From contig CAVPGH010000001.1 in NCBI GenBank assembly GCA_963703985.1, positions 1,122,746 through 1,186,745 on the forward strand: a DNA stretch of 64,000 nucleotides, written 5' to 3'. The notes beneath the pieces are model-generated. The model was not told the origin of the DNA and made no database searches. It saw nothing but the letters and a program-made list of their open reading frames with translations. Shown piece after piece: positions 4,101-37,756 of the stretch. Source of the stretch: an uncultured Acidobacteriota bacterium (lineage in GTDB: Bacteria; Acidobacteriota; Vicinamibacteria; Fen-336). The translations under genes were made by a program, and so were the position numbers. Position 1 is the first letter of the stretch. Each line of letters begins with the position of its first letter.

Positions 4101-4457
4101 GGAGCCCGCGGCCCCCATCTCGAGCGCGACGTTGATGGCCCGGGTCTGCGTCGACTCGAGGCGGACGTGCTCGCGGTTCCAGGTCTTGAACCCCTGCAGC
4201 GACACCTTCATGGTAAAGAGGCCGCCGGGCAGGGCCGGGAATCGGAAGTAGCCGGCCTTGGTCGTCTGCCCTGTCTGCGTGACCCCGGTGGCTTCGTTGG
4301 TTATGGTCACGGTCGCGGCGGGCACGACCGCGCCGCTCGGATCGGTCACTATGCCCTCGAGTGTGCTCGCAAACTGAGCCCACGCGACGGGAGCCGCGGC
4401 CACGACGAGCGTGGCGAGCAGCACGCCCCGTACAACGATCCCCTTGCCTATCGACAT
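1191..4457 (-). CDS. TonB-dependent-receptor-like outer membrane protein with carboxypeptidase-regulatory-like N-domain
   Basis: Real start is ATG at 4457 (MSIGKGIVVRGVLLATLVVAAAPVAWAQ signal peptide, GGAGG RBS upstream), not the ORF-track start 4607. N-terminal Ig-like CarbopepD_reg segment (GIVTDPSGAVVPAATVTITNEATGVTQTGQTTKAGYFRF), plug-like region, long beta-barrel, and an aromatic C-terminus (GARFQF) typical of OM barrels. Confidence 0.8.
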   Translation of the reverse strand: MSIGKGIVVRGVLLATLVVAAAPVAWAQFASTLEGIVTDPSGAVVPAATVTITNEATGVTQTGQTTKAGYFRFPALPGGLFTMKVSLQGFKTWNREHVRLESTQTRAINVALEMGAAGSEEVTVTADSPLVETSQARVSGLIQENQVKDLPLIGRNFFNLVVLTPGVTGRATGGGQAYAQANADIYNNEYGVNMNGNGGRTESNNFMVDSATVSSSQRSGVVNVNPNAEQVEEVRVLVNNFNAEYGRNSSVLVNVVTKSGANAFHGSLAGFYTNDGLQSKNYFQEQTANFNIPAFGRTEVSWGVGGPIIKDKTFFFVSGDVLRSDVAVSGVVPILTPQFIQLMQQRRPNGIATRIARDYPASFTPDRNFRTAGQILGSSCTGSTPIDTPIGPVPCDFQATGNGIWNETSPRNGFQWTVRIDHHFSSKDRVYASFNRTTTDKVGFGVPEVYPAFTAASPTSSLQLNTNWTRVWSSNVVNEFQFSWVRPWGELENPHADIPGISVTGINTYQVGWGPNIFVQNSFLWSDVVTWTRGAHSMKIGAGYTKEHADNDSARAITRPTFTFNNVFDFANDAPFSESQIPLDPRTGQVPDSIERLHRTQSLNTFVQDEWKVRPNFTLSAGLRFEWFMNITDASDDIVTNIEFPVDTGNLQSDLAYAQMVARQYWLNGGVFGPQNSLAPRVSFAWDPTKKGAMSVRGGYGRFYDRMSNQIWDSEHQNLPGYANAAVNVLQPVKPLFALGTSAILPYGFPFPAGLTAGVRPNGGLLNGTASVVVGDSDMPVEHAQNWFVGVQRALGKSVVVEGNYVGSQGGQMYYQLNINRFDGDLLDGTLNRIMPGFAAVNYTQGIDNGHYNGFNFSVRVQKTDLNLGAAYTLGKGTDNSSSFSGTQRPNAYGPNDQDRGPTDFDVRHKLALSLNWRLPGPSEGAAKAILGGWQLAGVMLAQTGTPFTVFCGSSFTAGCDYNADGTQFDRPNVPAFGDSKSGSNDDYLAGIFKASDFPKPAPGTDGTLGRNTYRGPRYFNVDMALVKSINIPALGRSSNLQLRIEAFNLFNTVNLLNPIGDLSNPNFGKSTSALPGRIVQFGARFQF

Positions 4458-4596
4458 GAGGTCCCTCCGGGTTTTTGTACCAGGATCGAACAAACGAGTC
4501 GCGTGGACACTATCTGTCATATCAAATATATCTGTGTCAAGAGGATTTTTTGTGCAGGGCATGAATTCTAGGCATAAGGCTACGCAGATTGACGTT

Positions 4597-5109
4597 TCAG
4601 CGCCCACAGCGACGCTTCACCTGCTGGGTGATCGCCAGGCTGGACGGAGGGTTTTCGTCGAGCCCGAGGGCATGGAGCATCTCGTGGATCACGTAGATCT
4701 CGGCTAGGTCGCGCTCCTGTTGGACGGTCTGCAGGAACGACTTGCAGACGAAAACTCTGGCCACCCCTCTCGTGGTGAGGAGCTGCGACTGGTTCGCCTG
4801 ACAGAGCGGGCGGCTCCGGCCGTCCAGGAACGGAATGACGGCGAGGAACTGGTCGGGCTCCATCGCGAACGGCCGCAGGTTCTCGAGAGGAGTGCGTCCC
4901 TGGGGGTCCTTGAAGTCGCTGAGCACCTGCCGGCACTCGGCCGACTGCAGACGGCGCATGGCCCCCTCGCGCGCGAACTCGACGACGCGGGCTTCGTAGG
5001 GCGCCAGGGGACGAATGCCCGCCTGGGCCGCAGCCGGCTCGGGGAGGGCGAAGAGGGCGGAGGCGAGCGCGAGGGACGAGGCGATTGGGGAACGGCGGGG
5101 CTGGCGCAT
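4597..5109 (-). CDS. small secreted hypothetical protein with HExxH motif
   Basis: Signal peptide MRQPRRSPIASSLALASALFALPEPAAAQA; HEMLH zinc-binding-like motif (IYVIHEMLHALGLDE); 170 aa; no family recognised. Confidence 0.45.
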   Translation of the reverse strand: MRQPRRSPIASSLALASALFALPEPAAAQAGIRPLAPYEARVVEFAREGAMRRLQSAECRQVLSDFKDPQGRTPLENLRPFAMEPDQFLAVIPFLDGRSRPLCQANQSQLLTTRGVARVFVCKSFLQTVQQERDLAEIYVIHEMLHALGLDENPPSSLAITQQVKRRCGR

Positions 5110-21594: not shown

Positions 21595-23288
21595 ATGCAG
21601 ATCGTGGCCAAGGCGAAGACGTACGACGTGTGCATCGTCGGCTCCGGCGCCGGAGGCGGCATGGCGGCCAAGGTCCTGGCCGAGGCGGGCGCCGATTGCG
21701 TGCTCCTCGAGGCGGGGCCGATGTGGGCGGCGAACAAGGACGGCGCGATGTTCAAGTGGAACTACGAGTCGCCGCGCCGCGGCGGCGGCTCGCGCCTCCG
21801 GCCCTTCGGCGAGTACGACGGCTGCATCGGGGGCTGGGACATCGAGGGCGAGCCCTACACCGTGGCCGAGGGCGATCGCTTCCTCTGGTTCCGCGGGCGG
21901 ATGCTCGGCGGGCGCACGAACCACTGGGGGCGGATCTCGCTGCGGGCGGGACCCTGGGACTTCAAGGGGAGGAGCCGCGACGGCCTCGGCGACGACTGGC
22001 CCATCGGCTACGATGACCTCAAGCCCTACTACGACCGGCTCGACGAGCTGGTCGGCCTCTACGGGTCGAACGAGGGGATCGAGAACGAGCCGGACGGGAT
22101 CTTCCAGCCGCCGCCCCCGCCACGGGCCTACGAGGGGCTCATCAAGAAGGCTTCCGACCAGCTCGGCGTTACCTGCATCCCGGCCCGGCGCTCCGTCCTC
22201 ACGAAGCCCCTGAACGGCCGGGCCCCCTGCCACTACTGCGGGCAGTGCCACCGCGGGTGCTCCACCGGCTCCAACTTCTCGACCCCGTCCGTGCTCCTTC
22301 CCCCCGCGCTCGCGACGGGACGCCTGACCCTCGTGACCGGGGCCATGGTCCGGGAGGTGCTGACGAACGAGGAGGGCCTGGCCACCGGCGTGTCGTACGT
22401 GGACACCGCCACCGGGCGCGAGCAGCAGGTGCGCGCCAAGATCGTGGTCCTTGCCGCCAGCGCCTGCGAGACCGCGCGTCTGCTCTTCAACTCGAAGTCG
22501 CCGCGGCATCCCGCCGGCCTCGCCAACTCCAGCGGCGCCGTCGGCCGCTACCTGACCGACACCACCGGCTCTCACCTGAGCGGCCACGTCCCCGCGCTCG
22601 AGGCCCTGCCTCCCTACAACGAAGACGGCACCGGAGGCATGCACGTCTACATGCCCTGGTGGCTGGACAACCGCACGCTCGACTTCCCGCGGGGCTACCA
22701 CATCGAGCCCTGGGGCGGCCGCTCGATGCCCGGGATCGGATTCATGGGCGGCATCCACCGCCTGCAGGGCGGCGGTTACGGGAAGAAGCTCAAGGACGAC
22801 TATCGCCGGCTCTACGGCTCGTTCGTCGGCTTCGCCGGCCGCGGCGAGATGATCCCCAACAAGGACTCGCTACTGCGAGATCGACCCGCGCGTGGTGGAC
22901 AAGTGGGGGATCCCCGTCCTGCGCTTCCACTGGAAGTGGTCGGACTACGAGCTCCTCCAGGCCCGGCACATGCAAGAGACGTTCGTCCGCATCATCGAGG
23001 CCATGGGGGGCAAGGTGATGGGCGACGTGCCCGGCCGGGCCGAGGAGTACGGCCTGAAGGTCGGGGGCGAGATCATCCACGAGGCGGGCACCACGCGCAT
23101 GGGCACGAGCCCGCTGCACCTCGGTCCTGAACGAGTGGTGCCAGGCCCACGACTGCAAGAACGTGTTCGTGGCGGACAGCGGGCCCTTCGTCAGCAACGC
23201 CCACAAGAACATGACCTGGACGATCCTCGCCCTCTCCATGCGGACGAGCGAGCACATCGTCGAGGAGCGACGGAAGGGGAACCTCTGA
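21595..23288 (+). CDS. GMC-family FAD oxidoreductase (glycoside 3-dehydrogenase-like catalytic subunit); two apparent +1 frameshifts
   Basis: N-terminal FAD motif [23 protein letters not shown]. Homology continues in a second frame from about 22866 ([19 protein letters not shown]...) and a third frame from about 23120 ([56 protein letters not shown]), matching the intact paralog at 58014-59708. Stop TGA overlaps the next gene's ATG. Confidence 0.7.
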
Positions 23289-23943
23289 TGAGCGAGATCG
23301 CACGACGTTCGGCCCTGCGCCTGATCGGGGGCGCGCCCCTCGCCGCGGGCTTCGGTCTGGGCGGGGGCGGGGGCGGCGCGGCGCCGGGGAGCAGGCGGCG
23401 AAGGCGGTGGCCGCCTCCCGCCAGGGCGTCGTCTACAAGCCGAGGTTCTTCACCGCCCACGAGTGGGAGACGGTGCGCGTGCTCGTGGACCTGATCCTCC
23501 CGCGCGACGAGCGGTCGGGCAGCGCCACCGACGCGGGCGTGCCCGAGTTCATGGACTTCTTCCTGACCGATCCCTACGAGGACGATCGCTCCCGCGAGAG
23601 CCGCCAGACCGCGATGCGGGGAGGCCTCGCCTGGATCGACGCGGAGTGCCGGCGCCGCTTCGGGGGCAAGGACTTCACGGAGTGCGCGGCACGCCGAGCA
23701 AGCCGCGCTCCTCGACGACATCGCCTACTGGAAGGGCGACGAGGAGGACGACCGGGCGATGCGCGACCGGGGCCCGCACGTCCTCCTGCGCCACGGCCCC
23801 AACTTCTTCAATTCCTTCCGGGACCTCACGGCCTCGGGCTTCTGGAGCAGCAAGATGGGCGTCGAAGATCTCGGCTACAAAGGCAACACGTTCGTCGTGG
23901 AGTTCCAGCCCCCGCCCGCGGAGGTCCTGCGCAAGCTCGGGCT
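23288..23943 (+). CDS. gluconate-2-dehydrogenase subunit-3-family small subunit (Tat signal), frameshifted
   Basis: [25 protein letters not shown] twin-arginine signal, then a frame change to ...AKAVAASRQGVVYKPRFFTAHEWETVRVLVDLILP..., and another to ...EQAALLDDIAYWKGDEEDDRAMRDRGPHVLLRHGPNFFNSFRDLTASGFWSSKMGVEDLGYKGNTFVVEF. No stop before the downstream DUF1080 ORF. Confidence 0.55.
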
Positions 23944-24694
23944 CGTGGTCGCGCTCGTCGCCTTCCTGGGGCCGGCGGCGGTTCGCGCCGCCGACGTCGG
24001 CAACTGGCCCATCCACGACCGCACCCGTCCCGCCCCGAAGGCGGTCGATCCGGGCACCGCCAGCACGCAGGAGCAGCCAGGCAAGCCGCCCTCGGACGCG
24101 ACCGTGCTCTTCGGCGGGAAGGACCTCTCGCTCTGGAAGTCCAAGAAGGACGGCGGCCCCGCCAAGTGGAAGGTGGAGAACGGCTACATGGAAGTCGTGA
24201 AGGGAACGGGCTACATCGAAACGGCCCAGGGCTTCGGCGACTGCCAGCTCCACGTGGAGTGGATGGCCCCTTCGCCGCCGGTGGGCCAGGACCAGGACCG
24301 CGGCAACAGCGGCGTCTTCCTGATGGGCCAGTACGAGGTGCAGGTGGTCGACTCCTATGAGAGCGCGACCTATCCCGACGGCCAGGCCGCGGCCCTCTAC
24401 GGTCAGTACCCGCCCCTCGTCAACGCCTCGCGTCCGCCCGGCCAGTGGCAGACCTACGACATCGTCTTCCACGCGCCGCGCTTCGACGCCGAGGGGAAGG
24501 TGACGCGGCCGGCGCGGGTGACCGTCCTGCACAACGGGGTGCTCGTGCAGGACGACGCGGAGCTCACCGGCCCTACGGCGCACAAGGCGCGCCCGCCCTA
24601 CACGGCCCACCCCGCGAAGCTGCCCCTCGCCCTGCAGGACCACGACCACCCGGTCCGCTATCGGAACATCTGGGTCCGGGAGCTGGCGGAGTAG
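23944..24694 (+). CDS. DUF1080 (3-keto-disaccharide-hydrolase-like, laminin-G jellyroll) protein
   Basis: Putative GTG start giving signal peptide VVALVAFLGPAAVRAADV; WKVENGYMEVVKGTGYIETAQGFGDCQLHVEW...NSGVFLMGQYEVQV...LPLALQDHDHPVRYRNIWVRELAE is characteristic of DUF1080. It is in frame with the upstream small-subunit ORF without an intervening stop. Confidence 0.65.
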
Positions 24695-24741
24695 GAGCCG
24701 CAGATACCGTCACGCGGGAGGGCTCGGCCGGAGATCGAGCG

Positions 24742-25964
24742 CTAGCGCGGGGTCCGCGCCGCCGGCCGCGCCTGCGCGGACCGCTTCTCGATCAGGAACG
24801 CCGCGAGGTCGGCCATGTCGCCGGGCCCGAAGCGTGGCCAGAGCACGCCCAACTTGCGCGATTCCTCTTCCATTTTCGGCGCGTGGTTCCACATCGCCGC
24901 GATGATGGCGATGGGGTCGTCGAGCTGGGGCACCTCGGCCAGGTTCGGCCCCAAGGCCGCGGCGGTGTGGCACCGCGAGCAGCGTTCCTCGAAGAGGCGG
25001 GCGCCGCGAGAGGGCGTGCCGCGAACGTCGGCGTAGTTCACGAAGTAGAGGTAGGCGATGATGTCCGCCATCTGCTCGCCCGAGAACTTGGTGTGGCTGA
25101 TCCCGCGGCGGGCGAACTCCGCGACCATCCCCTGGCCGTGGTTCCACATGACGCCGGCGATGGCCGATACCGAACCGATCAGCTCCCGGCGTCGCGTCCC
25201 GAGCTCGGGGCCGCCCCGGCCGCCCGTCCCGCCAACCGAGTGGCAGGCGTCGCAGCGCTTCGCGGCGAACAGGTCACGACCGCGCCGCGGGCTGCCGGGC
25301 TCGAAATACACGGGCTCGGCGCGACCCCACGTTGCCTGCCTGCAGGTAGCCGAGCAGGTCGCCCATCTCCCGACCCGCGAACCTGGGCCAGGGGATGCTC
25401 TGTCCCCGCATCAGCTTGGCCATCTCGGGCCCATGGTTCCACATCGCCTGGGCCAGGAAGATGGGCGAGAAGCGCCCCCGGTAGCGGTCCAGGCTCGGCC
25501 CGGGCTTGTCCCAGGAGTCGCCGCCTCCGTGACAGCTGCACGCATCCCTTGGAGACGAAGACGGCATGGCCCGCCGCGGGATTCGCCGGCTCCCCGACTT
25601 CGGTCAGGTAGTAGCGGTAGGCCGTGAGGAAGGCGACGAGGTCGGCCATCTCGCGGCTCGTCATCGTCGGCGCGGGGATCTTGAGGTCCTGCATCTTCTC
25701 CCGCATCACCGGAGAGTGGTTCCAGAAGGCGCCGGCGATGTCGAGCACCGTCCCCGTCAGGTGAATGCGTCCGAGGTCGGGCCCGACGCGCGCCTCCTCC
25801 CCGCCCAGCGAGTGGCAACGGACGCAGGCCTTCGTCACGAAGAGCCGCGCGCCGGCCGTCGGGTTGTTCGGCAGCTCGACCGAAAGGCGCACCGAGGGCT
25901 CCTCGGCCGCCGAGACGACACTCAGGCCGAGCAGGGCCACCGAGCCCAGGAGCCGGGCGCGCAT
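24742..25964 (-). CDS. c-type cytochrome of four tandem homologous monoheme domains (frameshifted)
   Basis: Signal peptide MRARLLGSVALLGLSVVSAAEE. Four repeats each carrying G.RLF...C..CH (CVRCH, C.SCH, CDACH, CSRCH), (A/V)xWNHxPxM, and MADLxAFL. Reading-frame changes at about 25570 and about 25320; the ATG overlaps the NrfD stop (TGATG). Confidence 0.6.
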
Positions 25965-27274
25965 CAGGCACCCACCTCGGCCATCTCTGCACCGGGGTGG
26001 TCGGCCCGCGTCCTGCGGCGCCGCCTCCTCCAGCTCCCAGATCGAGATGATCGGAAACAGCTTCGTGAACCCCATGTACAGCAGCGCGAAAGCCGCAAAG
26101 CAGCCCGCCATCAGCGACCACTCGACCCAGCTCGGCGCGTATCCGAAGCCGTGGATCGGCGCCCGCGGGTTCGAGAGCGACGGCACCACGATCGTGAAGC
26201 GCTCGAGCCACATCCCGATGTTGACCGAGATCGACGCCACCACGGTCCCCGCCACCGTGCGCGTCTTGTTGTTGGCCAGGATCACGAACGGGATCACGAA
26301 GCAGAAGACGAACATCGCCCAGAAGTAGGGGGCGAAGTGGCCCGAGAACTTGGCGTCGAAGACCGCGATCTCGTTGGGCTCGTGCGCGTACCAGGTCGTC
26401 AGGTACTCCGCGAAGGTGAAGTACAGCCACAGGCACGCCATCACGCAGCAGCAGCAGCCCGAGGTTGTTGAAGTGGATCGGCTTGCAGGTAGGCCTCGAG
26501 CCGGTACACCTTCCGGACGATCACCATCGCCGTGATGATGGCCGCGATCCCGGAGAAGATCGCCCCGACCACGAAGTACGGCCCGAAGATCGTGGAGTGC
26601 CACATCGGCTGGATCGTCATGGCGAACACCCACGACACCACGGTGTGCACGGAGACGGCGATCGGAATCACCAGGATCGCCATCACGCCGATGGCTCGCT
26701 CGAGGCGGTGCCATTGCTGCGGCGTGCCCGTCCAACCGAGCGACAGCCGTCGCGTAGAACCGGTGGCGCCAGCCTCGCCGTCCGATCGCGCAGCAGCGCG
26801 ATGTCCGGGATCAGCGGGCAGGTACAGGTAGAGGCTGCTGGCGGTGAGATAGACGCTGATGCTGGCCACGTCCCACAGCAGCGGCGAGCGGAAGTGCGGG
26901 TGCAGGATGACGTTCAGGGCGCGATCCGGCCGCCCCAGGTCCAGCAGCACGTTGCCGACGCCGAAGAAGAGCACCAGGACGGTGATCACCTCGGCCATCC
27001 GCGTGATCGGCCGGCGCCACTCGGCCTGAACGATGCGCAGGATCGCCGAGATCAGCGTCCCGGCGTGAGAGACGCCGATGAAGAAGACGAAGTTGGTGAT
27101 GTAGAGCCCCCAGTACACCGGCCGGCCGAGCCCGGTGGCTCCGAGGCCATGGATGAGCTGCCACGACCAGGCCATGACCGCCCAGGCGACCACGGCCGCC
27201 AGGCCGAGGGCCCATCGCCTGAAGGAAGGCCCCGTCGTCAGGACCGGCTCGAGGATGGCCGTGCTCTCCCTGCA
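25964..27274 (-). CDS. NrfD/PsrC-family integral membrane quinone-interacting subunit (frameshifted)
   Basis: Pieces in three frames: PSFRRWALGLAAVVAWAVMAWSWQLIHGLGATGLGRPVYWGLYITNFVFFIGVSHAGTLISAILR... and ...LWLYFTFAEYLTTWYAHEPNEIAVFDAKF...GMWLERFTIVVPSL...: polytopic NrfD-like. ATG at 27274 is 2 nt after the FeS-gene stop. Confidence 0.65.
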
Positions 27275-27276
27275 TG

Positions 27277-27956
27277 GCTACTCGCCCTCGCGCAGGTAGA
27301 CCACCTTGGGTCGCGTGCCCAGCTCCTCCATGAAGCGGAAGGCGCGTGCGCTCTCCACCAGCGGGGCGACGGGGTCGTGCGGATCGTCGAGATCGCCGAA
27401 GACCAGGGCCTCGGCGGGACAGGTCTGGACGCAGGCCGGCACGTAGTCGTCCGGCGCCAGCTCGCGCCCCGCCGCGCGCGGCGCGCTCGCGTGCCAGCAT
27501 CAAGCGGTGATGACAGAACGTGCACTTCTCGACGACGCCCTTGGGCCGCACCGACACGTCCGGGTTCATCATCGAAGCCATCGACTCGGGCCACTCCGGC
27601 GTGGTCCAGGTGAAGACCTTGACGGCGTAGGGACAGGCGTTGGTGCAGTAACGGCAACCGATGCAGCGCGGATAGACCTGCGCGACGATGCCTTCGGGGT
27701 TCAGGTAGGTGGCGCTCGTCGGACAGACGTCCACGCACGGCGGCCGATCGCAGTGCTGGCACATCAGCGGAAGCACGGCGGCCCCGGCGCGGCCCGGCAC
27801 CTCGGCCGGCACGAGCTGCAGCCAGGTCATGAGGCGGCCCTCGGCCGCGACCTCCGGCATCGAGAACGGCACGTTGTTCTCGTGCTTGCAGGCGACCACG
27901 CACGCCTGACAGCCGGTGCAACGGTCCAGATCGACGACCAGGCCCCAGCGCGACAC
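27277..27956 (-). CDS. 4Fe-4S ferredoxin-type subunit (PsrB/NrfC/ActB2-like), one frameshift
   Basis: GTG start with AGGAGG RBS; four Cys clusters (CTGCQACVVACK, CQHCDRPPCVDVCP, CIGCRYCTNACP, CTFCHH); after about 27460 the C-terminus continues in another frame (ELAPDDYVPACVQTCPAEALVFGDLDDPHDPVAPLVE...VVYLREGE*). Confidence 0.75.
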
Positions 27957-27966
27957 GAGATGCCTC

Positions 27967-30181
27967 CTAGGCGCGCGTGACGCGCACCATCAAATCCCCG
28001 CCGACGGGCGACGTCGTCCGCGAGCAGGCGCAGGTCCGAAGCGATTTTGCGCGCCCAGCGACCGCTCCCCGGGACGGCCGGCACGAAGGCGAGCGCGACC
28101 GAGTCGGCGGGCATCTTCTCGACCAGGACCGCCACCGCCTCCACCGCGCCCCGCGGCGAGACGATCCGGATGCGGGCGCCCGCCCCGACCGCCAGCGCGC
28201 GCGCGGTCTCGGGGCTCAGCTCGGCCCAGGCCTGCCACGGCGCGCCGTCCGGCTGGCCGAGCAGCTCGAAGAGCGCGGGCTGGTTGGGGCTGCCCCGGTC
28301 GGTGACGAGGGCCGGCTTGAACGGAACGAGGCGCAGGGGATACTCGGCGGCCCCGACCCGCGCCGACGAGCGCCCGGCGGCCGCTTTCGCCAAGGCCACG
28401 GCCGGCGATGAAAGGCGCAGGCCCGCGCGGGCGCGCAGCGATTCACGGACCCGCCCCGGGGTGACGTACGGGTCGGCCCAGCCGCCGGCCTCCACCACCG
28501 CCGCGGCGAACGCTTCGCGGGATGGCGCCGGGGCGACCCACCAGCCGCCCTTTTCGAGCTGCCGCACCCATTCGGTTTCGTAGAGGTCCGAATAGGGAGC
28601 GCCGCGCCTCAGGCCACAGAGCCGCTCCAGCTCGTCGTGAACGACGTCGTCCGAGGCCGTCCATGGGCACGCGCCGGCGAGCGGCTCGCCCGCGCCGACC
28701 GCGACGTCCTTGAGCAGAGAGGCCGCGTCCTTCGTGGACAGCAGCGGCTTGACGGCCGGCTTGGCGATGGCCACCGCTTCGAGGGCAGCGGCCTGAGCCG
28801 GCAGCGTGGCGTGCCAGCTCTCGAGAGCCGTGTGCGTTGGCATCAGCAGGTCGGCGATCGCCGCGGCTTCGTCGAGGAAGGGGGAGAAGCTCACGACGAG
28901 GTCCGTCGGCCGCAGCGCCGCCCCCAGGTTGCGCGGCGATGCCAGCGCGCGCAGCGCCGAGGCGTCCCGGAAGGCCAGGATCGCGGGACGGATCCGGCCC
29001 TCGGCGACCTCCCGCAGCGTCGTCGTCGCGTCTTCCACCTCGGCGGCCGGGCGCCGGGGCGCGCAGGTCACGCCGCCCGCCCGGTCGAACGCGCCGATGA
29101 GCGCATTGAGGGCGAAGACCGCCTCGACCAGGGAACGGTCGGCATCCGCCGCCACCACCGCCAGCGGTCTGGCGCTGCTGGCCAGCTCGCGGGCCAGCCG
29201 GAGCACCGTCACCACCGGCACACCGGTCACCGAAGCGACGTCGTCGGGCGTGTAGTTGGCGGCCACCTCGCGCTCGAAAGCGGCGAGGTCGCCCCCCAGG
29301 TCGTCGAGGAACGCGCGGTTGACGCGGTTCTCGCGCAGCAGGACGTAGGCGATGCCGTAGGCGAGCACGGCCTGCCTTTCGGAATGGACCGCGAGCCACT
29401 CGTCGGCCTTGCGCGCCGTCATCGAGCGGCGGGGCTCGATCTGGACCAGCCTTCCCCGCGCGCCGGATCCGCGCCGGAAGCGGCCGTAGCTGCGCTGGGT
29501 CCAGACTCCCGACAGCCAGTCCTCGGCGACCGGCGCGCCGAACGACAGCACGTAGCTGGCGTGCTCCAGGTCGAAGAGCGGATCCGCGGAGACGCCGGTC
29601 AAGGCCCGGAAGGCAGGGCCGAGCCGGGCCGCGCTAGCGGCCCGCGTCCACACGACCCGGGCGCCCGCCGCCGTCCAGAAGCGCGTCCAGGCGTCGGCCA
29701 AAGGCCCCTCTTCTTCGGAAGCGAGGGCAAGCACGCCTTGGCGCCCACCGCCGGCATCCCGCAGTCGCGATGCCAGGAGGGCGATCGCGGCGTCCCACGT
29801 GATCGGCTCCCACTGCCCTTCGCCTCTCTTCCCCACGCGTCGAGCGGGGCCCACCAGACGGTCGGGGTCGAAGTAGGACTCGAGCGATGCCTGGCCCTTC
29901 GCGCACAGCCGCCCGCGCGAGACGGGGCAGAGCGGGTTGCCCTCCAGCTTGACCGGCGCGCCGTCCATCAGCCGTACGCGGATCCCGCAGGCCGCCGGGC
30001 ACTCGCGACAGACGCTCGTGGCCCAGCTCTCGACGCCTCGTCCCCGCCAGCCGGCGGCGCGCTCGTCGGCGCGCGCGAGCTGTCGACGGCCCAGCTCCCC
30101 GAGCGTGATGCCGGCGAGGGTCGCGCCCCCGTAGACCAGGAAGTCCCGGCGGCTCAGCGATTGGTCGCTCATCGATGGCAC
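27967..30181 (-). CDS. molybdopterin-oxidoreductase-family catalytic-like subunit (PsrA/ActB1-like), Tat-exported
   Basis: MSDQSLSRRDFLVYGGATLAGI Tat signal; N-terminal FeS motif CRECPAACGIRVRL...CPVSRGRLCAKGQA; about 735 aa. The ORF-track frame runs on to 27827, but the likely true end is ...GDLMVRVTRA* in another frame (stop at about 27967) just before the FeS-gene RBS. Confidence 0.75.
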
Positions 30182-30651
30182 GCCGCGCAGTCCTGGCTGG
30201 CGCCCTCACGCTTGTGGCAGTCGAGACAGGCGTTCATATCCAAGCGCATCGGTGGGCGCCCGGGCGGCACGGCGCTCGTCCCCACGTCCGCGTGGCACGA
30301 CGCACACTCGAGCCGGGCGAGGCCGACGTGGCGCCGGTGAGAGAACATGACGTGCTCCGGGAGATGGGAAACGCGCAGCCAGGCGATCGGCTGGGCGCGC
30401 CCGGCCTCGTCCCATTTCACCCCCGCCGCGGCCCTCGGAGCCGTGGCGTGGCACTTCAGGCACACCGCCGCCTCGGGGATGCCGGCACGGGCTTGCTCAA
30501 AGGCGCCGCGGTGGCAGACGCCGCAGCCCATCCCTGCATGCCGGGCATGGTTGAAGGCGACAGGCTGGGCGAGGGGCGCCCGCGGCAGCAGCAGCATCCA
30601 TGCGCCGGCCACGGCCAGCGTCAGCGCGGCGAATCGAAGCAATCGGCCCAT
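30169..30651 (-). CDS. pentaheme c-type cytochrome (NrfB/ActA-like)
   Basis: Signal peptide plus five CxxCH motifs (CGVCH, CLKCH, CASCH, CLDCH, CAACH) in 160 aa; overlaps the Mo-subunit start by 13 nt. Confidence 0.75.
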   Translation of the reverse strand: MGRLLRFAALTLAVAGAWMLLLPRAPLAQPVAFNHARHAGMGCGVCHRGAFEQARAGIPEAAVCLKCHATAPRAAAGVKWDEAGRAQPIAWLRVSHLPEHVMFSHRRHVGLARLECASCHADVGTSAVPPGRPPMRLDMNACLDCHKREGASQDCAACHR

Positions 30652-30663
30652 GAGGGAAGCGGC

Positions 30664-31077
30664 CTAAAGGCCGGGTTTCGCCGCCGCCTCTTTGAGCTTC
30701 TTGTCGTAGAGCTCCTTCTTGCGGATCTTCGAGTCGTACACGACGAACTCGAAGATCTGCTTGCCCTCGTCCGGGCTGATGAAAGTGCCCGCCTTGCGCA
30801 TCATCCTCTTGATGTAGCGCTCCCACTCGTCGTCGAGGACGAATTCGCAGTTGATCGCGCGGGCCGGCGTGTGGCACTTGCTGCACTTCGTCAAGAAGAC
30901 CTTGTAGCGGGCCTTCATGTCTTCGGGGTACTTGGAGACGTCGATCTTGGCCGGACCCTTGTCATACGCGAGGATCCGCGGATCGACCGGCTCCTCCTTG
31001 TCCTGGGCCACGATCTTCAGGGCGAGCGCCGCGAAGGCCAGCAAGACAAGCGCGGTGACCGTAACGGTACGTGTCAT
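30664..31077 (-). CDS. monoheme c-type cytochrome, secreted (lysine-rich, lower GC)
   Basis: Signal peptide MTRTVTVTALVLLAFAALALK; single CSKCH; GC visibly lower (about 60%) than the flanks. Confidence 0.6.
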   Translation of the reverse strand: MTRTVTVTALVLLAFAALALKIVAQDKEEPVDPRILAYDKGPAKIDVSKYPEDMKARYKVFLTKCSKCHTPARAINCEFVLDDEWERYIKRMMRKAGTFISPDEGKQIFEFVVYDSKIRKKELYDKKLKEAAAKPGL

Positions 31078-31093
31078 GTCGGAAGCTCCTCCT

Positions 31094-33793
31094 CTAGAAG
31101 TTCAGGATGTAGGACACACCGAAGATGCTCACCCCGTAATTGAACGGCTGCTCGTTGGTCGGCAGCACGCCGCTCAGCGACCCGAGCTGCATGCCCTCGT
31201 AGGCCGGGTCGTTGGATCGCATGCGCAAGTACGAGTAGTCCAGGCGCACCGACTGGCGCTTGTCGATCGCGAATCGGCCGCTCAGGCGCAGCTCGCCCGT
31301 GTTGGTGGTGATCGTCGGCATCGGGGCGCCCGCGATGAAGAACGCCGCGATGGTCGTCGGAGGCCCGCCCGGGCCGTTGAGGATGTTGTTGGCCCAGTTT
31401 CCGCCCGCCGCTGCGCTGGTGTCCGACCGCGCGCGGGACAGGATCAAGTTGCCCAGAAGGTCGAAGCTGCCGGCCCGCTTCCGCAACCCGACGCCCACCG
31501 TGTGCACCTTGTCGAGCATGTTCGTGGACCAGTCCAGGCACGGGTCCAGCTTGTTGTTGTTGTTCCGCTGTTGCAGCGTGGTGTAGCCGTCGCAGCTGTT
31601 GCCCGAGAGGCCGACCGCCCCTGGCTGACCGTTGTTCAAGGCGGCCACGTTGCTGTTGGCCGTATAGCTGTTGCCCGCGCGTCATGGGAACTGAAGTTCT
31701 CGTACGTGTAGCAGACGTTCACGCTCGTGGCGTCGCCCAGCGCGTAGGTCCCGTCGACGTTCACGGCCCAGTTCTTTGCGTCCTGAACGCCGTAGGTCGA
31801 GCCGGGGTAGCGGTCCTTGTTGAGATCCAGGCCGCCCTGGAACGACAGCTGCTCGGTTGCCTGCCAGCTGAGCAACGCGCGCAGCTTGTCTCGATTGCGA
31901 TCCGCCACGTAGTAGCGGCGCATCCCCGGAAGCTCGCTGATCCGGTTGTTGTTGGCGTACATCGCGTTGGCCAGGGCGTTGTTGCTCGGGAAGAACAGGT
32001 TCATGTTGCCGGTGGTGACGGCGAAGCCGGCCGCAGGTCCCCATCCGTTCCAACCGTTCGCCTGCATGAACGAAAGAGCGGTCGCGCCCCCGGTCGCCGC
32101 GGCCGGGCTGACGTTGGCGTACGGGACCAGCGCCAGGAAGGCGTTCTCGTTGTAGTCCGGCGCTCTGCGCGCGGAATACGCATAGCCGACCCGGGCGGTG
32201 ACCTTCTCACCCAGCGTGCGCCCGCCATTCGGCCCGCAGCGTGTGCTCGTTGGTCGTCGCCGCATCCGCGCAGCTGATCCAGGACGCGAAGCAGGCGCGG
32301 TCGATCTTCTCGAACTCGTAGCCGACCTTGATCCACTGGCCCTTCACGAAGCCGTAGTCGGCCTCGGCGGTGACCTGATTGAGCTTCCTGCTGTACGGAC
32401 GATTGGCGTTTGCGTTCTGTGCGACAACGGCGCCGAGAGGATTGTTGGGGCCGGCGGGGAAATTGGCGTTCGCCGCGGGCGCTTCGCCGGCGTCCGCGTA
32501 CTGGTAGATGTTGACGGCGGTGCGGTTGTCGCGGTCGTCGTACCTGTACGCCGCGGTCAGGGTCAGCTTCTTTGCCGGCCGGGTCGTGAATCGGCGTTGA
32601 ACGTCGTGGTCACGACGAGGCCGTCCAGCGAGCTGACCGGCACCACCGGCGTCGTCGCATCGGTCAGGAACGCGTCGTTCTGCGTGTTGCGTCGCGTACG
32701 ATCCGGTCGCGACCAGCTTGGTGGTCGAGCGAGAAGTTCATGCCGCCGGTCGCGTTCCACTGGTTGAAGGTGTTGCCCGGCGTGCTGCTCATGGTGTTGA
32801 CCGACCCTCGTGGGGGTCGCCCAGTTCTGCCACGACATGAACGGCACGTTGTTCTTGAAGAACGAGCCGTAGTACCCGGCCTGCGCGAAGCTCTTCGGGC
32901 CCGTGAAATTCAGACTCATGGCGACCTGGTTGTGATCGGTGTCGATCACATCGGGAATGATGGTCGAGATGTCGGCGCCGGTGTTTCGAGAGACCGTCCC
33001 CATCGGCTTCACACCGTCCTTGTGCTCGGGCCGGAAAGTCACGTCGACTCCCCAGCGCTGGTCGAAGTTGTAGTTGAGGCCGACGTCGAACCTCGTGCGC
33101 TTCGTGAACAGGTTGAAGTTGTGGAACAGCGGCACGTCGGCGGCCGCGGCGGCGTCGACGAGCGCCGTCTGGGCCGCGTTCGGCGTTCGCAACGCGCCCA
33201 TCGCCGGCGAGTTCGTCGCGACGTCGATGTAAGGCGCGTCGCCGATCGCCGGGATGAGGCCTCGCGCGCTGACGATGTTCGTCGTGTTGTTGGTGCCGCT
33301 GCTTCCGGCCACCGTCGGTACGATGCCAGGATCGCGGCAACGTGAGGACGTTCGTCCCCGTGCCGTTGAACGGCGTCTGATACGTGTCCGATCGGTTCCG
33401 GCGCAGCTCGTCGTAGCCGAACGTCAGCCGGAACTTGCCCTGCTGGCCGATCTGGGCGGATGCATTCGCGATCTCGAGGCCGAGATCGGTGCCCTTGATG
33501 CGCCACCGCAGCGTGCTGTCGCTGTTGTAGCCGGCGGCGCCGCCGCGCCAGTCGAGGTTGCCGATGCCGAACGCGCCCTTGTTCTCGAGGCCGTTGTATT
33601 CGCCGGCCTTGTAGGACCCGTCGCCGACGGTGCCCGCGCCGACTTCGACCGTGCTCGTCGGCTTGGTTTGGGCTTCCGCATGGGCAGCGTACGCGCGCCA
33701 GCGCCGCCGCGAGCGCGACTCGAGCGACGGCCACGCGAGCCCGGGTAGGCGAATTCGCTGTGCGTTTGTCATGACATCGCTCCCTGATCGCAT
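31094..33793 (-). CDS. MtrB/PioB-family outer-membrane porin (decaheme-associated beta-barrel), multiply frameshifted
   Basis: About 900 codons spread over at least three frames (ORFs 32789-33793, 32563-33312, 31636-32265, 31094-31648). Recurring beta-strand, Gly/Asn/Tyr-rich composition and the motif GYDELRRNRSDTYQTPF; terminal YILNF aromatic C-terminus; lies immediately downstream of the decaheme cytochrome. Confidence 0.55.
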
Positions 33794-33797
33794 CGGG

Positions 33798-34824
33798 TTA
33801 GCGCTGGAACTTCGCGCCGGCCGGGTGATTCGAGCCGTGAATCAGCACATGACAGTTCAGACACGCGCGCGCGCCCGCCTGGGCGCGCGGCGCCGCCGCG
33901 CCGGGCTGCTGAAGCCCGTTGATGGTGGTCACGTCGCCGACCGCCAGGTTCGCACCGCTGTTGACCTGTGCGCCGTGGTCGCCGCTGTGGCACTCCTGGC
34001 ACAGCCACGGCGCGCGCGCCTTGAGCAGCGGTGCGTTGCTCGAGCCGTGCGGCGTGTGGCAGTTGGTGCAGTCGTCCGAGACCGGCGCGTGCTCCCAGAG
34101 GAACGGGCCGCGCTTCTCGGGATGGCAGGTGAAGCAGGTCTCGTTGACCGAGTTCTTGACGAGCATCTTCGGACCGGTCGACCCGTGCGGGTTGTGGCAG
34201 TCCGAGCAGGCCATCTTGGCGGCGCTGGCCAGGCTGGTCACCGCCAGCGGATGGGTCGAGATGCGCCGCGTCTGCGCGCGCTGCGCCTTGTGGCAGGTGA
34301 AGCAGACGTCGGCCTGGGTCGCCTTGCTCAGCACCTTCTGTTCGGGAGCGTGGATGTTGTGGCAGTCGGTGCAGGCGACGCCACGACCCTCGTGCTGGCT
34401 GGCCGGTCCAGTAGGAGCGCAGGCCGGCCTCGTGGCACGACAGGCACTTGGCATTGCGTTCGGCGACGGGCGAGGCTTTCCGCCCCTTGTACACGATGCC
34501 CACCGGATTGCTCGTGACGGCAATGTGGTCGGGACTCGCCCCGTGACACGTTTCGCACAGGTGCTGGGCGAACGGCGTGCGCTGATCGCCCTTGACGGCG
34601 TGCGGCGTCTGGAGGATCAACGTGGTCGGCTCTTGGTTGTGGCACTCGCGCAGGCAGGTCTGCACGGGATTCGGCGCGTACTCCGGCGGTCCGGGCGCGG
34701 GCGCAGAGGTCGGCTCCTGGTCGGCGCGCGCCGGCGCGGTCGCGACGGTGAGCGCGGCGAGGACCAGCGCGCCGATGTGGGCAGCGTGTCTTTGGCGTTG
34801 CACGGAACGGGCGCGGATTGACAT
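33798..34824 (-). CDS. decaheme c-type cytochrome (MtrA/MtoA/PioA-like), one frameshift
   Basis: ATG at 34824 with AAGGAG RBS; signal peptide MSIRARSVQRQRHAAHIGALVLAALTVATAPARA. Hemes 1-3 (CLRECH, CETCH, CLSCH) are in one frame. Hemes 4-10 (CTDCH, CFTCH, CSDCH, CFTCH, CTNCH, CQECH, CLNCH) are in the frame of ORF 33798-34523. Total ten CxxCH in about 340 aa. Confidence 0.7.
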
Positions 34825-34859
34825 GGGTTCTGCGCTCCTTCGACAGAGAGCCGTCGGCT

Positions 34860-35312
34860 TCACCGCCACTTCTCCGCGGCCCCGGACTTCGGAAGGAGGC
34901 TCATGAGGTGCTCGACCAGGTCGGTCAGCTCCGCGTCGGACATCTGAGCGCCCCAGCCGGGCATCCTGTACGGCGGCCGCGGACCTTTCGCGTCCTCGCG
35001 GCCGATCGTCGCCAGGCCATCGAGGATCTTCTTCTTCAGCTCGGCGCGCGTGAACCCCTCCGCCACGAACGTCAAGCCGGGCACTTTGCCGTCTGTCTCC
35101 GCGTTCCGGTTGGCGAACCCGCCCTTGGCGTCGGCGCCGTGGCACAGCCCGCACCCGTAGCGCTCGTAGACGCGGCGGCCGCGTTCCGGAGCGGCCTCCC
35201 GGCCCGCGTCACGGGGCACGGCGCGAACGATACGGGGCAGCGGCGTCCGCGTCTGGGCCCAGGCGGCCATGCCCAGCAGGACCAGCAGCGCGAACGGGAG
35301 CAGCCGCCTCAC
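34860..35312 (-). CDS. monoheme class-I c-type cytochrome, secreted
   Basis: Signal peptide MRRLLPFALLVLLGMAAWAQ; CGLCH; 150 aa. Confidence 0.65.
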   Translation of the reverse strand: MRRLLPFALLVLLGMAAWAQTRTPLPRIVRAVPRDAGREAAPERGRRVYERYGCGLCHGADAKGGFANRNAETDGKVPGLTFVAEGFTRAELKKKILDGLATIGREDAKGPRPPYRMPGWGAQMSDAELTDLVEHLMSLLPKSGAAEKWR

Positions 35313-35369: not shown

Positions 35370-36851
35370 TTAATCCAGCGAGGACGCCGGGTCGGCTTGG
35401 GGGGCCGGCTGGGAAGGGGGCGATCCGGCCCCCTCGGGCGCACTTGGCAGGTAGACCGCGAAAGTGGACCCCCGGCCGGGGACGCTGGTGAGCTTGATGG
35501 TGCCCCGGTGCAGCCGCACGATCTGCTCGACGATGGCGAGACCGAGGCCGGAACCGCCCGTGTCGCGAGCACGCGCCGGATCCGATCGGTAGAACGGCTC
35601 GAAGATGTGGGGCAGATCCTGTGGCTCGATCCCACAGCCGTGATCCACGACCATCACCATCGCGTGGCCGTGGGGCCGCCCAACGGTCACGACGACGTTG
35701 GACGCGGCCGGAGAATAGCGGATCGCGTTCTGGAGCAGGTTGAGCACGACCCGCCGCAGGTGGAGCGGGCTGCCGAGCACCAGGGGGCGGCCCTGGATGG
35801 ACGTCTCCACCACCACCTGTTTCTCCTCCGCCATGGCGCTCGCGATCTCGCAGCACTCCAACACGAGCTCGGCCAGGTCCACGCCCTCGGCCACCTCCAG
35901 CATCTGACCTCGATCGGCCAGGGCCAGCAAGCGCAGATCACGGATCAGCGTCGACAGGCGCTCGGTCTCCTCGAGCAGGCCGGCGGCGAGCGCGCGGTAG
36001 TCGGTCGGAGTCCGATCCGCGCGCAAGCACAACTCGACGGCACCGCGCATCGCGGCCAGCGGCGTCTGCAGCTCGTGCGACGCGTCGGCCGCGAAGCGGC
36101 GGGCGCTGCGGAGCGATCCCTCGATCCGGTCGAGCATCTCGTTGAGGGTCGTGGCCAAGCCGTCGATCTCGTCGCTGCCGGTACGCGCCTCGAGCCGCTC
36201 GTTGATGTGGGCCGATTGGATCAGCTGGACCCGGCGCACGATCTCGTCCACCGGGGCCAGCGCCCGGCGCGCGGTGAAGGCGCTGCCGTAGCTCGCGAGC
36301 ACCAGCACCACCACGATGGACAGCACCATCCCGAGGGCCAGGCGGACCTGGTCGCGGCGCACCGGCTCCACCGAGGCCGCCAACTGCACGATCAGGCTCT
36401 CCGCTCCCGGTCGTGGGACCACGGCCGTCGCGACCCGTAGCGGGGCTCCCGAGATGTCCGCCACGGTGATGAGCGGCGTGCGCTCGCGGACCGCCGCCGC
36501 GGCCGCGCGCTCGCTCGCCCAGTCCAGCCGCGGGAACCCCCGCGAGCGGAAGAGCACCGGTCCGGACGCCTGGCGCACGAGCACCGGCGCCTCCGCCGCC
36601 ACCTCGCTCGCGAGAACGCTTGCCACGTCGAGGGTCAGCAGAGCCGCGCGGCGATCCGCCACGAACCCGAGCAGGCGCACTTGCAGCTCGCGATCGAGCT
36701 CGTGGTAGGAGGTCCGCGCCTGGCTGACCAGGACGAACACGGCCAGGGTTCCGAGCGCGCCGCTGAGGGTGAGCAGGTACCAGAGCGTCAGGCGGGTGCG
36801 AAGGCTCCTAGGGCGAAGTCGAGCCAGGATCCCCAAGGACATACCCCACAC
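35370..36851 (-). CDS. sensor histidine kinase (CusS/CzcS heavy-metal-sensor-like)
   Basis: Two TM helices with periplasmic loop, HAMP, H-box ASHELQTPLAAMRGAVE, and HATPase G-boxes (DHGCGI, GGSGLGLAIV). Confidence 0.8.
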   Translation of the reverse strand: MWGMSLGILARLRPRSLRTRLTLWYLLTLSGALGTLAVFVLVSQARTSYHELDRELQVRLLGFVADRRAALLTLDVASVLASEVAAEAPVLVRQASGPVLFRSRGFPRLDWASERAAAAAVRERTPLITVADISGAPLRVATAVVPRPGAESLIVQLAASVEPVRRDQVRLALGMVLSIVVVLVLASYGSAFTARRALAPVDEIVRRVQLIQSAHINERLEARTGSDEIDGLATTLNEMLDRIEGSLRSARRFAADASHELQTPLAAMRGAVELCLRADRTPTDYRALAAGLLEETERLSTLIRDLRLLALADRGQMLEVAEGVDLAELVLECCEIASAMAEEKQVVVETSIQGRPLVLGSPLHLRRVVLNLLQNAIRYSPAASNVVVTVGRPHGHAMVMVVDHGCGIEPQDLPHIFEPFYRSDPARARDTGGSGLGLAIVEQIVRLHRGTIKLTSVPGRGSTFAVYLPSAPEGAGSPPSQPAPQADPASSLD

Positions 36852-37494
36852 CGCGGACGGCCACTATCAGGCTGGGCCGCCCGGGAACGTCGAGCTTCTC
36901 GCGCAAGTGCTTGACGTGAACGTCGACCACGTTGCTCCCGGGATCGAAAGTGCAGTCCCACACGTGCTCGGCGATCATGGCCCGAGTCAGCACGACACCG
37001 GACCGCCGCATGAGGTACTCCAAGAGCGCGTACTCCCTCGGGGTGAGGGCGATCAGCCGGCCGGATCGCTTGACGGTGTGCGTCGCGGGATCGAGATCCA
37101 GGTCCCCGGCGGTGAGGACCGGCGCTTCCGTGACGCGGTGGCGCCGGCTCAGGGCGCGCAGGCGCGCCGCCAGTTCCTCCAGCGCGAACGGCTTGACCAG
37201 GTAGTCGTCGGCTCCCGCATCCAGCCCACGGACGCGGTCCTCGACCATGTCCCGCGCCGAGATGATGAGGATCCGGGTCTTGTTGCCCGCCGCGCGAAGG
37301 CGCTTGCAGACGGTCAGGCCGTCGATGCCGGGCAGCATCAGGTCCAGCACGATCGCGTCGTAGTCGTAGGTGGCGGCCAGCTCCAGAGCGCTCGGGCCGT
37401 CGTGTGCGACGTCGACGGCAAACGACTCCTCGGCGAGCGCCCGACAGATGTAGTGCGCCATGCGCCGCTCGTCCTCGACGACCAGGAGCCTCAA
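36808..37494 (-). CDS. OmpR-family response regulator (CusR-like)
   Basis: Receiver MRLLVVEDERR...DLMLPGIDG...wHTH VRGVGYVL; the likely TTG start at 37494 restores the receiver N-terminus (the ORF-track start 37581 is too far upstream). Confidence 0.75.
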   Translation of the reverse strand: MRLLVVEDERRMAHYICRALAEESFAVDVAHDGPSALELAATYDYDAIVLDLMLPGIDGLTVCKRLRAAGNKTRILIISARDMVEDRVRGLDAGADDYLVKPFALEELAARLRALSRRHRVTEAPVLTAGDLDLDPATHTVKRSGRLIALTPREYALLEYLMRRSGVVLTRAMIAEHVWDCTFDPGSNVVDVHVKHLREKLDVPGRPSLIVAVRGVGYVLGDPGSTSP

Positions 37495-37756
37495 CTGGTT
37501 GCCCGGCGCGGCTCGGCCCGCGCTACTCGACCCGGTGCCCCAGGTCGTGCGGCAGGCCGAGGTCCTTGATCTGCCCGACACCCTTGTCGAGCAAGCCCGC
37601 TGACCGGCAAGGTCGGGTCATCGGGGCGAAGGTGGACGTTCTGCGGCATGGCTCGCGGTATCGCGAGCGACAACTATGCCGCGGGCGCGGGCTGCGCGCA
37701 AACGCCGAGTAGTCAAAGCGCCTCGAAGGTCCCGAAAAAGCCAGGTCCTATCCCTC

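Follow-up and report, generated by a model that had tools for sequence, protein, structure and literature searches.

A predicted four-domain tetrahaem class I cytochrome c at the end of an ACIII/Qrc-like operon in an uncultured Vicinamibacteria bacterium

The window analysed here is a stretch of 64,000 nt from contig CAVPGH010000001.1 (assembly GCA_963703985.1) of an uncultured acidobacterium of the class Vicinamibacteria. It contains a gene, named cyt4x here, whose predicted product is an exported class I cytochrome c with four tandem domains and four haems. The best joint explanation of our results, with a probability of about 0.75, is that cyt4x is a single Sec-exported tetrahaem gene, that the frame breaks in it are errors, and that it is the last gene of an operon for a quinone-interacting complex resembling alternative complex III (ACIII) and Qrc.

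Four cytochrome domains in one gene

A preliminary description of this DNA had reported four tandem copies of one monohaem domain at 24742-25964, and we confirmed them on the minus strand. After correction of both indels (three-frame translation, frames joined), the product is 407 aa long, with the start codon ATG at 25964-25962 and the stop codon TAG at 24744-24742. The reading frame changes near 25537 and again near 25320, and the repeats run on through all three frames. Each of the four domains, 92-97 aa in size, contains one CxxCH motif and one W-N-H-x-x-x-M motif. The CxxCH motifs of the corrected protein are at residues 47, 141, 238 and 329; W-N-H-x-x-x-M is located 30 residues past the haem-binding His, with its Met 36 residues past this proximal His. 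Domain pairs showed 33-43% identity (BLASTP E = 1e-12 to 1e-22), and in Smith-Waterman comparison with shuffled sequences their z-scores were 19-34. The Pfam model PF00034 (Cytochrom_C) matched four stretches with 99.5 bits against a cut-off of 21.3; the model TIGR02603 of a putative haem-binding domain reached 59.1 bits, under its cut-off of 68.15. Domain 4 of the window copy has an in-frame 9-nt deletion at about 24955, which is window-specific.

Several motifs described earlier needed correction. The variants CVRCH, CDACH and CSRCH are present as listed, but the "C.SCH" is in truth a CVRCH whose S had been read across an inserted base. The signature WNHxPxM, said to recur in every repeat, was found in domains 1, 2 and 4, but domain 3 has WNHGQGM without the Pro. 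G.RLF and MADL are valid as consensus only, with GHAVF and MGDL in domain 2 and GRDLF and MADI in domain 3.

The N-terminal segment MRARLLGSVALLGLSVVSA is predicted to be a Sec signal peptide, with probable cleavage after VSA and without a lipobox Cys. In the AlphaFold2 (AF2) model of the homologue P0001, the signal-peptide segment forms a helix at residues 2-17. This full-length model had a mean predicted local distance difference test value (pLDDT) of 85 and a predicted template modelling score (pTM) of 0.81, and the model of window domain 1 had a pLDDT of 86. Each modelled domain comprises three main helices, and WNHxxxM is in the long middle one. Through a profile built from 39 domains and compared with solved natural proteins, we found the best matches in Aquifex c555 and in the actinobacterial dihaem QcrC chains; the latter, matched over the full domain (E about 1e-8), are the closest multi-domain relatives of solved structure. 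The Met of WNHxxxM is probably the distal ligand, so that the haems, probably His/Met coordinated, would be of relatively high potential.

In two relatives the cyt4x open reading frame (ORF) is uninterrupted, with 410 aa in L001 and 409 aa in L005. Since the repeats continue seamlessly across the frame changes and such relatives have intact single ORFs, the interval is best described as one gene, not four, for a predicted Sec-exported four-domain class I cytochrome c. The same view in the preliminary description, of one quadruplicated gene, is borne out by these ORFs and by the rule of four CxxCH motifs in the loci described below.

The corrected protein retrieved 2575 proteins at E <= 1e-3. 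The best 120 of them are nearly all 404-426 aa in length, with up to 92% identity, a value reached by P0001 and by the L005 protein. Their names are only "c-type cytochrome", "cytochrome c2" and "mono/diheme cytochrome c family protein", and family members are sometimes mislabelled NorC. A Gemmatimonadota protein used as query gave a similar outcome. By scanning one genome per species, we collected 61 loci, all from metagenome-assembled genomes (MAGs). They belong to Acidobacteriota (Vicinamibacteria, Thermoanaerobaculia and Bryobacterales), Zixibacteria RBG-1, Methylomirabilota/Rokubacteria, Gemmatimonadota, Binatia, Myxococcota and Thermodesulfobacteriota, at least seven phyla in all. In virtually all 61 loci, the ORF has four CxxCH motifs at a spacing of 90-97 aa.

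With domain 1 alone as the query, phmmer matched 1280 of 1.84 billion cluster representatives, 195 with E-values below 1e-30. In the best 150 of the 1280, the query matched four stretches in 124 proteins, three in 19, two in three, one in one, five in two and eight in one; the three-stretch proteins are mostly shorter than 350 aa and probably truncated. Tetra-domain fusions, whose existence elsewhere had been posed as a question for such a search, are therefore the norm. A monohaem source family had also been expected from it, and none in free form was found among the best 150 of the 1280 matches.

In a sample of 60 domains from 15 diverse proteins, the nearest neighbour in another protein shared the domain index in 46 of the 60. 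The quadruplication is therefore older than the spread of the family, whose members inherited the four domains together; judged from these similarities, the four domains derive from an ancient quadruplication. The two Cys and the His of CxxCH and the Trp are invariant in the 60 domains, the His of WNH is conserved in 93% and the Met in 90%, and some distant domains have I, V, A or D in place of this WNHxxxM Met. The window copy has all the features of the family: about 400 aa, a predicted signal peptide, four CxxCH motifs 90-97 aa apart and WNHxxxM in each domain.

In the literature we found no description of the family beyond a one-line remark concerning MBNT15. We regard cyt4x as a member of a large, catalogued and uncharacterised family, of a known kind, namely the multi-domain class I cytochrome on a quinol oxidoreductase.

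Other arrangements of the domain were also observed. A two-domain form of 209 aa is encoded in L017 (19982-20611), and forms of about eight domains, or in-frame tandem pairs, are P0121 (768 aa), P0008 (690 aa, N-terminally truncated) and L042 9914-12508. In P0313 (597 aa) an NrfD C-terminus reads straight into cyt4x, through fusion or frame error, and we did not trust it as a fusion.

Linkage with quinone-interacting complexes and proposed function

Along the minus strand of the window, genes for a response regulator and histidine kinase come first, followed by those for the 150-aa cytochrome c, the PioA/MtoA-like multihaem cytochrome, the MtrB/PioB-like barrel and the 137-aa monohaem protein. 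After them come a pentahaem cytochrome, a protein like the molybdenum-bis(pyranopterin guanine dinucleotide) enzymes (Mo-bisPGD-like, below Mo-like), a four-cluster iron-sulfur (FeS) protein, NrfD and, as the last gene, cyt4x. The whole arrangement, including the porin-cytochrome block (31094-35312), is intact in L002, a 4.2-Mb acidobacterial contig. The TGA of NrfD (25966-25964) overlaps the ATG of cyt4x as TGATG in the window and in L001, and the overlap in L002 is 4 nt. By this gene order and overlap, cyt4x is the final gene of the operon, with predicted translational coupling.

In the Mo-like subunit, Mo-bisPGD models matched the N-terminal half only; the C-terminal half had no match to Mo-enzyme models, and PF01568 gave no match on this subunit. 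The position of the Cys in the PsrA motif SLCTAPR, which we take to be the Mo ligand, is Pro in L002 (5782-8004) and, as judged by eye, Ala in the window. The Mo-like subunit probably serves as a scaffold without cofactor, like QrcB and ActB or ActB1 (PMC6303296). The 137-aa CSKCH protein had no Pfam, NCBIfam or PDB match, and it is kept between the porin-cytochrome and ActA-like genes in about ten Acidobacteriota and Zixibacteria loci.

For neighbour association we used 79 deduplicated cyt4x copies in the loci, 74 with adequate flanks and five with flanks too short. Forty-five of the 79 copies, the window copy included, adjoin the ActA-like/Mo-like/FeS/NrfD set. In most cases they directly follow NrfD, in some they directly precede the ActA-like gene, and tandem pairs are frequent. 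Another association is with Rieske and cytochrome b genes, which adjoin 19 of the 79 copies; three copies adjoin both gene sets. In total, 67 of the 74 evaluable copies are beside the NrfD set and/or Rieske/cytochrome b, and no Rieske or cytochrome b gene was found anywhere in the window. The order multihaem c, Mo-like, FeS, NrfD is present in the window and about 36 loci. Thus cyt4x is repeatedly and tightly linked to two kinds of quinone-interacting complex.

Individual loci showed further arrangements. L017 15854-20611, from a Methylomirabilia MAG, contains, in this order, a cyt4x paralogue, a 9-haem membrane-anchored cytochrome, Rieske, cytochrome b and the two-domain WNHxxxM protein; further cyt4x copies occur in L017, one directly after an NrfD gene. 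In L003 (9230-11251) and L004 (GCA_040960765.1 and GCA_040960095.1), about 60 aa of the Mo-like N-terminus directly abut about 150 aa of the NrfD C-terminus, with an intact cyt4x downstream, and this looks like the deletion remnant of an ACIII-like operon that spared the cytochrome.

Compared with known systems, the operon core is of a predicted ACIII/Qrc type without ActD, ActE and ActF. The best solved relatives of the neighbour proteins in L002 are chains of ActC, the C-terminal half of ActB, and ActA (E from 1e-14 to 3e-18) of ACIII (ActABCDEF). The window ActA-like protein has five haems, as has the pentahaem ActA, and a class I cytochrome c gene ends the cyt4x operon, as ActE follows the membrane subunits. 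However, the cyt4x operon contains no ActD, ActE or ActF gene and one NrfD-type gene, with no small membrane protein between NrfD and cyt4x in the window and L002; in intact relatives of the operon, one gene encodes the Mo-like part and another the FeS part. Cyt4x itself differs from ActE in having four class I domains instead of one and in lacking a lipobox.

The gene order multihaem c, Mo-like, FeS, NrfD is identical to that of QrcABCD, and the Mo-like subunit appears to be without a Mo ligand, as QrcB is without cofactor. QrcA, QrcB and QrcC are the best NCBIfam models for the first three subunits in L002, and DsrP and QrcD, both below cut-offs, are the best for the membrane subunit. All Qrc scores in L002 nevertheless remained under the cut-offs (QrcA 77.8/180, QrcB 211.7/440, QrcC 268.7/400 and QrcD 47.3/570), and the membrane subunit of the cyt4x operon is much closer to ActC. 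Moreover, Qrc has no class I tetrahaem partner gene and belongs to sulfate reducers, whereas the cyt4x hosts are mostly soil and groundwater lineages, with one locus from Thermodesulfobacteriota. In the survey of NrfD complexes by Calisto and Pereira, made on isolate genomes, QrcD was found only in Deltaproteobacteria and the cyt4x arrangement was not included (PMC8076601).

The closest precedent, compared by description only, is the ACIII-like cluster of MBNT15, whose published terminal c-type cytochrome has four haems and was proposed as donor to periplasmic or extracellular acceptors; unlike the cyt4x operon, that cluster also contains ActD. Tandem class I domains are also known in QcrC of the actinobacterial bc1 complex, in c4 and in CcoP. 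QcrC is the c-type outlet of a quinol:cytochrome c oxidoreductase, and the 19 cyt4x paralogues and the two-domain variant are encoded beside Rieske/cytochrome b genes. QcrC differs in having two domains, not four, and a C-terminal membrane anchor, which cyt4x lacks. The NCBIfam QcrC model (NF050122) gave 40.8 bits on cyt4x against a cut-off of 200, the window cyt4x is not beside Rieske/b genes, and the W-N-H-x-x-x-M helix signature is specific to the cyt4x family.

By analogy with these systems, cyt4x most likely serves as a periplasmic high-potential haem module of quinol:acceptor oxidoreductases. Menaquinol would be oxidised at the ActC-like subunit, and the electrons would reach the four haems of cyt4x by way of the FeS clusters and then the pentahaem cytochrome. 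Cyt4x would be the periplasmic high-potential outlet (or inlet), like ActE in ACIII and cytochrome c1 or dihaem QcrC in bc complexes, and would hand electrons to periplasmic or outer-membrane partners, either as a bound subunit or as a dissociable partner. The periplasmic shuttle proposed in the preliminary description is in part supported, the Sec-type signal peptide supporting a periplasmic location. A shuttle is not established and not singled out, because the TGATG coupling and the conserved synteny with quinol oxidases fit a bound subunit or a dedicated dissociable partner.

Several points weigh against the assignment of such a function. The Foldseek matches in PDB were weak for both the full and the single-domain models (E of at least 0.04, TM-scores of 0.4-0.6), the top-scoring ones being all class I cytochromes (mitochondrial c, c2, NorC and the caa3 c-domain), and a sequence search of PDB with the full protein gave nothing at E <= 0.01. 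Haem attachment, axial ligands, redox potentials and complex binding are all what we infer from sequence. ActE chains were absent among the 60 PDB matches listed for the domain profile, and for this reason the equivalence of cyt4x and ActE is a functional analogy only. For seven of the 74 evaluable copies, no neighbour of either type is located within 10 kb, and the link is strong, not obligatory. The sequence also gives no direction of electron flow, which could be that of metal reduction or of Fe(II) oxidation with reverse flow.

In an alternative that we consider rather unlikely, the protein is as described but cyt4x is an electron entry. It would take electrons from the PioA/MtoA-like cytochrome in Fe(II) (or Mn/humic) oxidation and pass them to a terminal oxidase, or uphill via the ACIII-like complex to quinone. 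Porin-cytochrome genes of the PioAB/MtoAB-like type are located directly upstream in the window, L002, L007 and L015, and L014 has them on the opposite strand, all of which is consistent with this alternative. ACIII ("Mob"/ActB) has been proposed in the electron transport of Fe(II) oxidisers, with reverse flow through ACIII proposed for Zetaproteobacteria, and Acidobacteria and Rokubacteria are reported to have PioA/PioB homologues (PMC10654088); for Zixibacteria RBG-1, a similar cluster of the Mtr type was interpreted as Fe(II) oxidation (PMC3903129). However, the porin-cytochrome genes accompany only a minority of loci, all of Acidobacteriota, and are found far less widely than the ActA-like/Mo-like/FeS/NrfD/cyt4x core or the Rieske/b association.

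For cyt4x as the haem module of quinol oxidoreductases, the adjacent PioAB/MtoAB-like genes suggest a link of the operon to an outer-membrane conduit in Vicinamibacteria. We might speculate, tentatively, that cyt4x is a dedicated and interchangeable tetrahaem "exit wire", recruited independently by a minimal ACIII/Qrc-like complex (without ActD/E/F) and by Rieske/cytochrome b complexes without c1, and that in Vicinamibacteria it is the connection between the quinone pool and conduits of the PioAB/MtoAB type that serve extracellular metal redox chemistry. If so, Acidobacteriota, Gemmatimonadota, Methylomirabilota and their allies would share a respiratory module that has no name so far. In soil and groundwater, Acidobacteriota, Gemmatimonadota and Rokubacteria rank among the most abundant bacteria, and what is known of their respiratory chains comes almost entirely from annotation. 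As the cytochrome c outlet that is missing from ACIII-like complexes without ActE and from bc complexes without c1, cyt4x is a concrete candidate open to test, and in this genome it is a candidate link to porin-cytochrome conduits. So far the family has been catalogued only by generic names; its fixed four-domain design and its ties to two kinds of quinol oxidase are now visible.

Frame breaks in cyt4x and its neighbours

Through a three-way DNA alignment of the window with L001 (a 4.3-kb metagenomic contig) and L005 (a Vicinamibacteria MAG contig), both about 93% identical to the window here, we found that both frame breaks of cyt4x are indels specific to the window. The ATG starts inside the gene are therefore artefacts, as the preliminary description had stated. 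For the second break, an extra G in a GGGG run was considered and replaced by the homologue-guided 2-nt gap at 25318/19.

The NrfD gene contains six further window-only 1-nt insertions, at 26815, 26777, 26750, 26485, 26445 and 26015, and all eight frame-breaking indels in these 2.2 kb are absent from both L001 and L005. None of the eight is in a homopolymer, and seven are 1-nt insertions; three are within 65 nt, and some are 27-40 nt apart. After removal of the insertions, no stop codon interrupts the window NrfD. Its synonymous:nonsynonymous ratio is 10:7, and its lineage-specific substitutions are the fewest (19, against 36 and 42 in the two relatives). In cyt4x, the window-specific substitutions are 9/8/16 by codon position and 16:14 as synonymous:nonsynonymous, a pattern like that of the intact relatives and far from the ratio of about 1:3 expected under neutrality. 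The mutation spectrum of bacteria is deletion-biased and repeat-associated. The indels here are insertion-dominated, clustered and outside repeats, in genes that are well conserved, and for this reason we attribute them to consensus error instead of decay. The comparison points to sequence or assembly errors for both frame breaks of cyt4x, and those in cyt4x and the neighbouring genes should be corrected before annotation.

It is improbable, in our estimation, that the frameshifts are real and that cyt4x and the surrounding operon form a genuine, very recent pseudogene cluster. Two observations speak for such a cluster and against an error: the indels are concentrated at about 22.8-35.2 kb in the plot of GC at third codon positions (GC3 phase plot), unlike a uniform error process, and outside this block the window has unbroken ORFs of 2.8-3.4 kb (1191-4607, 37757-40546, 45552-48446 and 59772-62555). 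MtrB, MtrA, FeS and NrfD are each multi-frame, and the indels are numerous relative to the lineage-specific substitutions. However, 1-nt insertions outside repeats, as seven of the eight are, represent the reverse of the bacterial mutation spectrum, no nonsense codons were found, the window lineage has the fewest unique substitutions, and these are enriched in third positions and synonymous changes as in the intact relatives. An old pseudogene was ruled out by the substitution patterns and the lack of stop codons. Under the error reading, the region 22.8-35.2 kb may be a locally low-quality stretch of the assembly.

The genes broken in the block 22800-35200 are the GMC-oxidoreductase-like ORFs, NrfD, FeS, the MtrB-like and MtrA-like genes and cyt4x. 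The 2.3-kb Mo-like gene is unbroken although inside the block.

Two other explanations have a negligible probability. Programmed ribosomal frameshifting could join the three frames, there being two +1-type frame changes within one gene, but neither site is conserved, the relatives at about 93% identity lack both indels, one site falls inside an essential CxxCH, and no slippery heptamer was seen at either site. Four separate monohaem genes in tandem, with real stops between the repeats, are suggested by the ORF track, in which distinct ORFs of 97 and 189 aa begin within the region, but no repeat boundary coincides with a stop/start pair, the relatives are all single ORFs, and four-copy proteins dominate the best single-domain matches as given above; with orthologues intact and free of both indels, this explanation was ruled out.

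Features of the window

The coordinates of cyt4x, its parts and the genes upstream of it are given in Table 1.

Table 1. Predicted features of the cyt4x region, in window coordinates
Feature	Position	Strand	Basis or details
cyt4x (name given here), four-domain tetrahaem class I cytochrome c gene	24742..25964	minus	translation, PF00034, intact homologues
cyt4x predicted Sec signal peptide MRARLLGSVALLGLSVVSA	25908..25964	minus	sequence reading
cyt4x domain 1	25590..25871	minus	CVRCH 25812-25826; WNHSPVM 25704-25724
cyt4x domain 2, with both frame-breaking indels	25300..25589	minus	CVRCH 25529-25544 including the extra A; WNHGPEM 25421-25441
Frameshift 1, extra A in the Arg codon of the second CxxCH (TGC GTG C[A]GC TGT CAC)	25537	minus	absent from L001 and L005
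Frameshift 2, 2-nt deletion junction	25318..25319	minus	window TCGCGC--CGAG, relatives TCGCGCTCCGAG, giving ...GSRSEPVYF...
cyt4x domain 3	25024..25299	minus	CDACH 25240-25254; WNHGQGM 25126-25146
cyt4x domain 4	24745..25023	minus	CSRCH 24967-24981; WNHAPKM 24871-24891
ActC-like NrfD membrane subunit, upstream of cyt4x	25964..27275 (start approximate)	minus	L002 orthologue against 6f0k_C, E = 3e-75
Four-cluster FeS subunit (ActB C-terminal/QrcC-like)	27278..27956	minus	at least one frameshift; L002 orthologue against 6lod_B, 6e-55
Mo-bisPGD-like subunit, twin-arginine translocation (Tat) signal and FS0 Cys motif	27827..30181	minus	true end probably near 27970; ORF runs into the FeS gene
ActA/QrcA-like pentahaem cytochrome, five CxxCH	30169..30651	minus	6btm_A 3e-18, 6f0k_A 9e-14
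137-aa exported monohaem (CSKCH) protein	30664..31077	minus	sequence, position conservation
MtrB/PioB-like barrel, at least four frame pieces	31094-33793	minus	sequence
PioA/MtoA-like multihaem cytochrome, at least nine CxxCH	33798 to about 35000	minus	sequence
150-aa class I cytochrome c	34860-35312	minus	sequence

Upstream of the 150-aa cytochrome c gene, a CusRS-like two-component system (family assigned by eye) is located at 35370-37581. Convergent with cyt4x, the plus strand at 21595-24694 encodes a GMC-oxidoreductase-like ORF, a small Tat-signal protein and a DUF1080-like protein, all assigned by eye, the first two of which appear frameshifted. Two large Ser/Thr protein kinases fused to PD40 beta-propeller repeats are encoded on the minus strand at 37757-40546 and 45552-48446. 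A CarboxypepD_reg-type outer-membrane barrel is located at 1191-4607; the kinases and the barrel are typical of Acidobacteriota.

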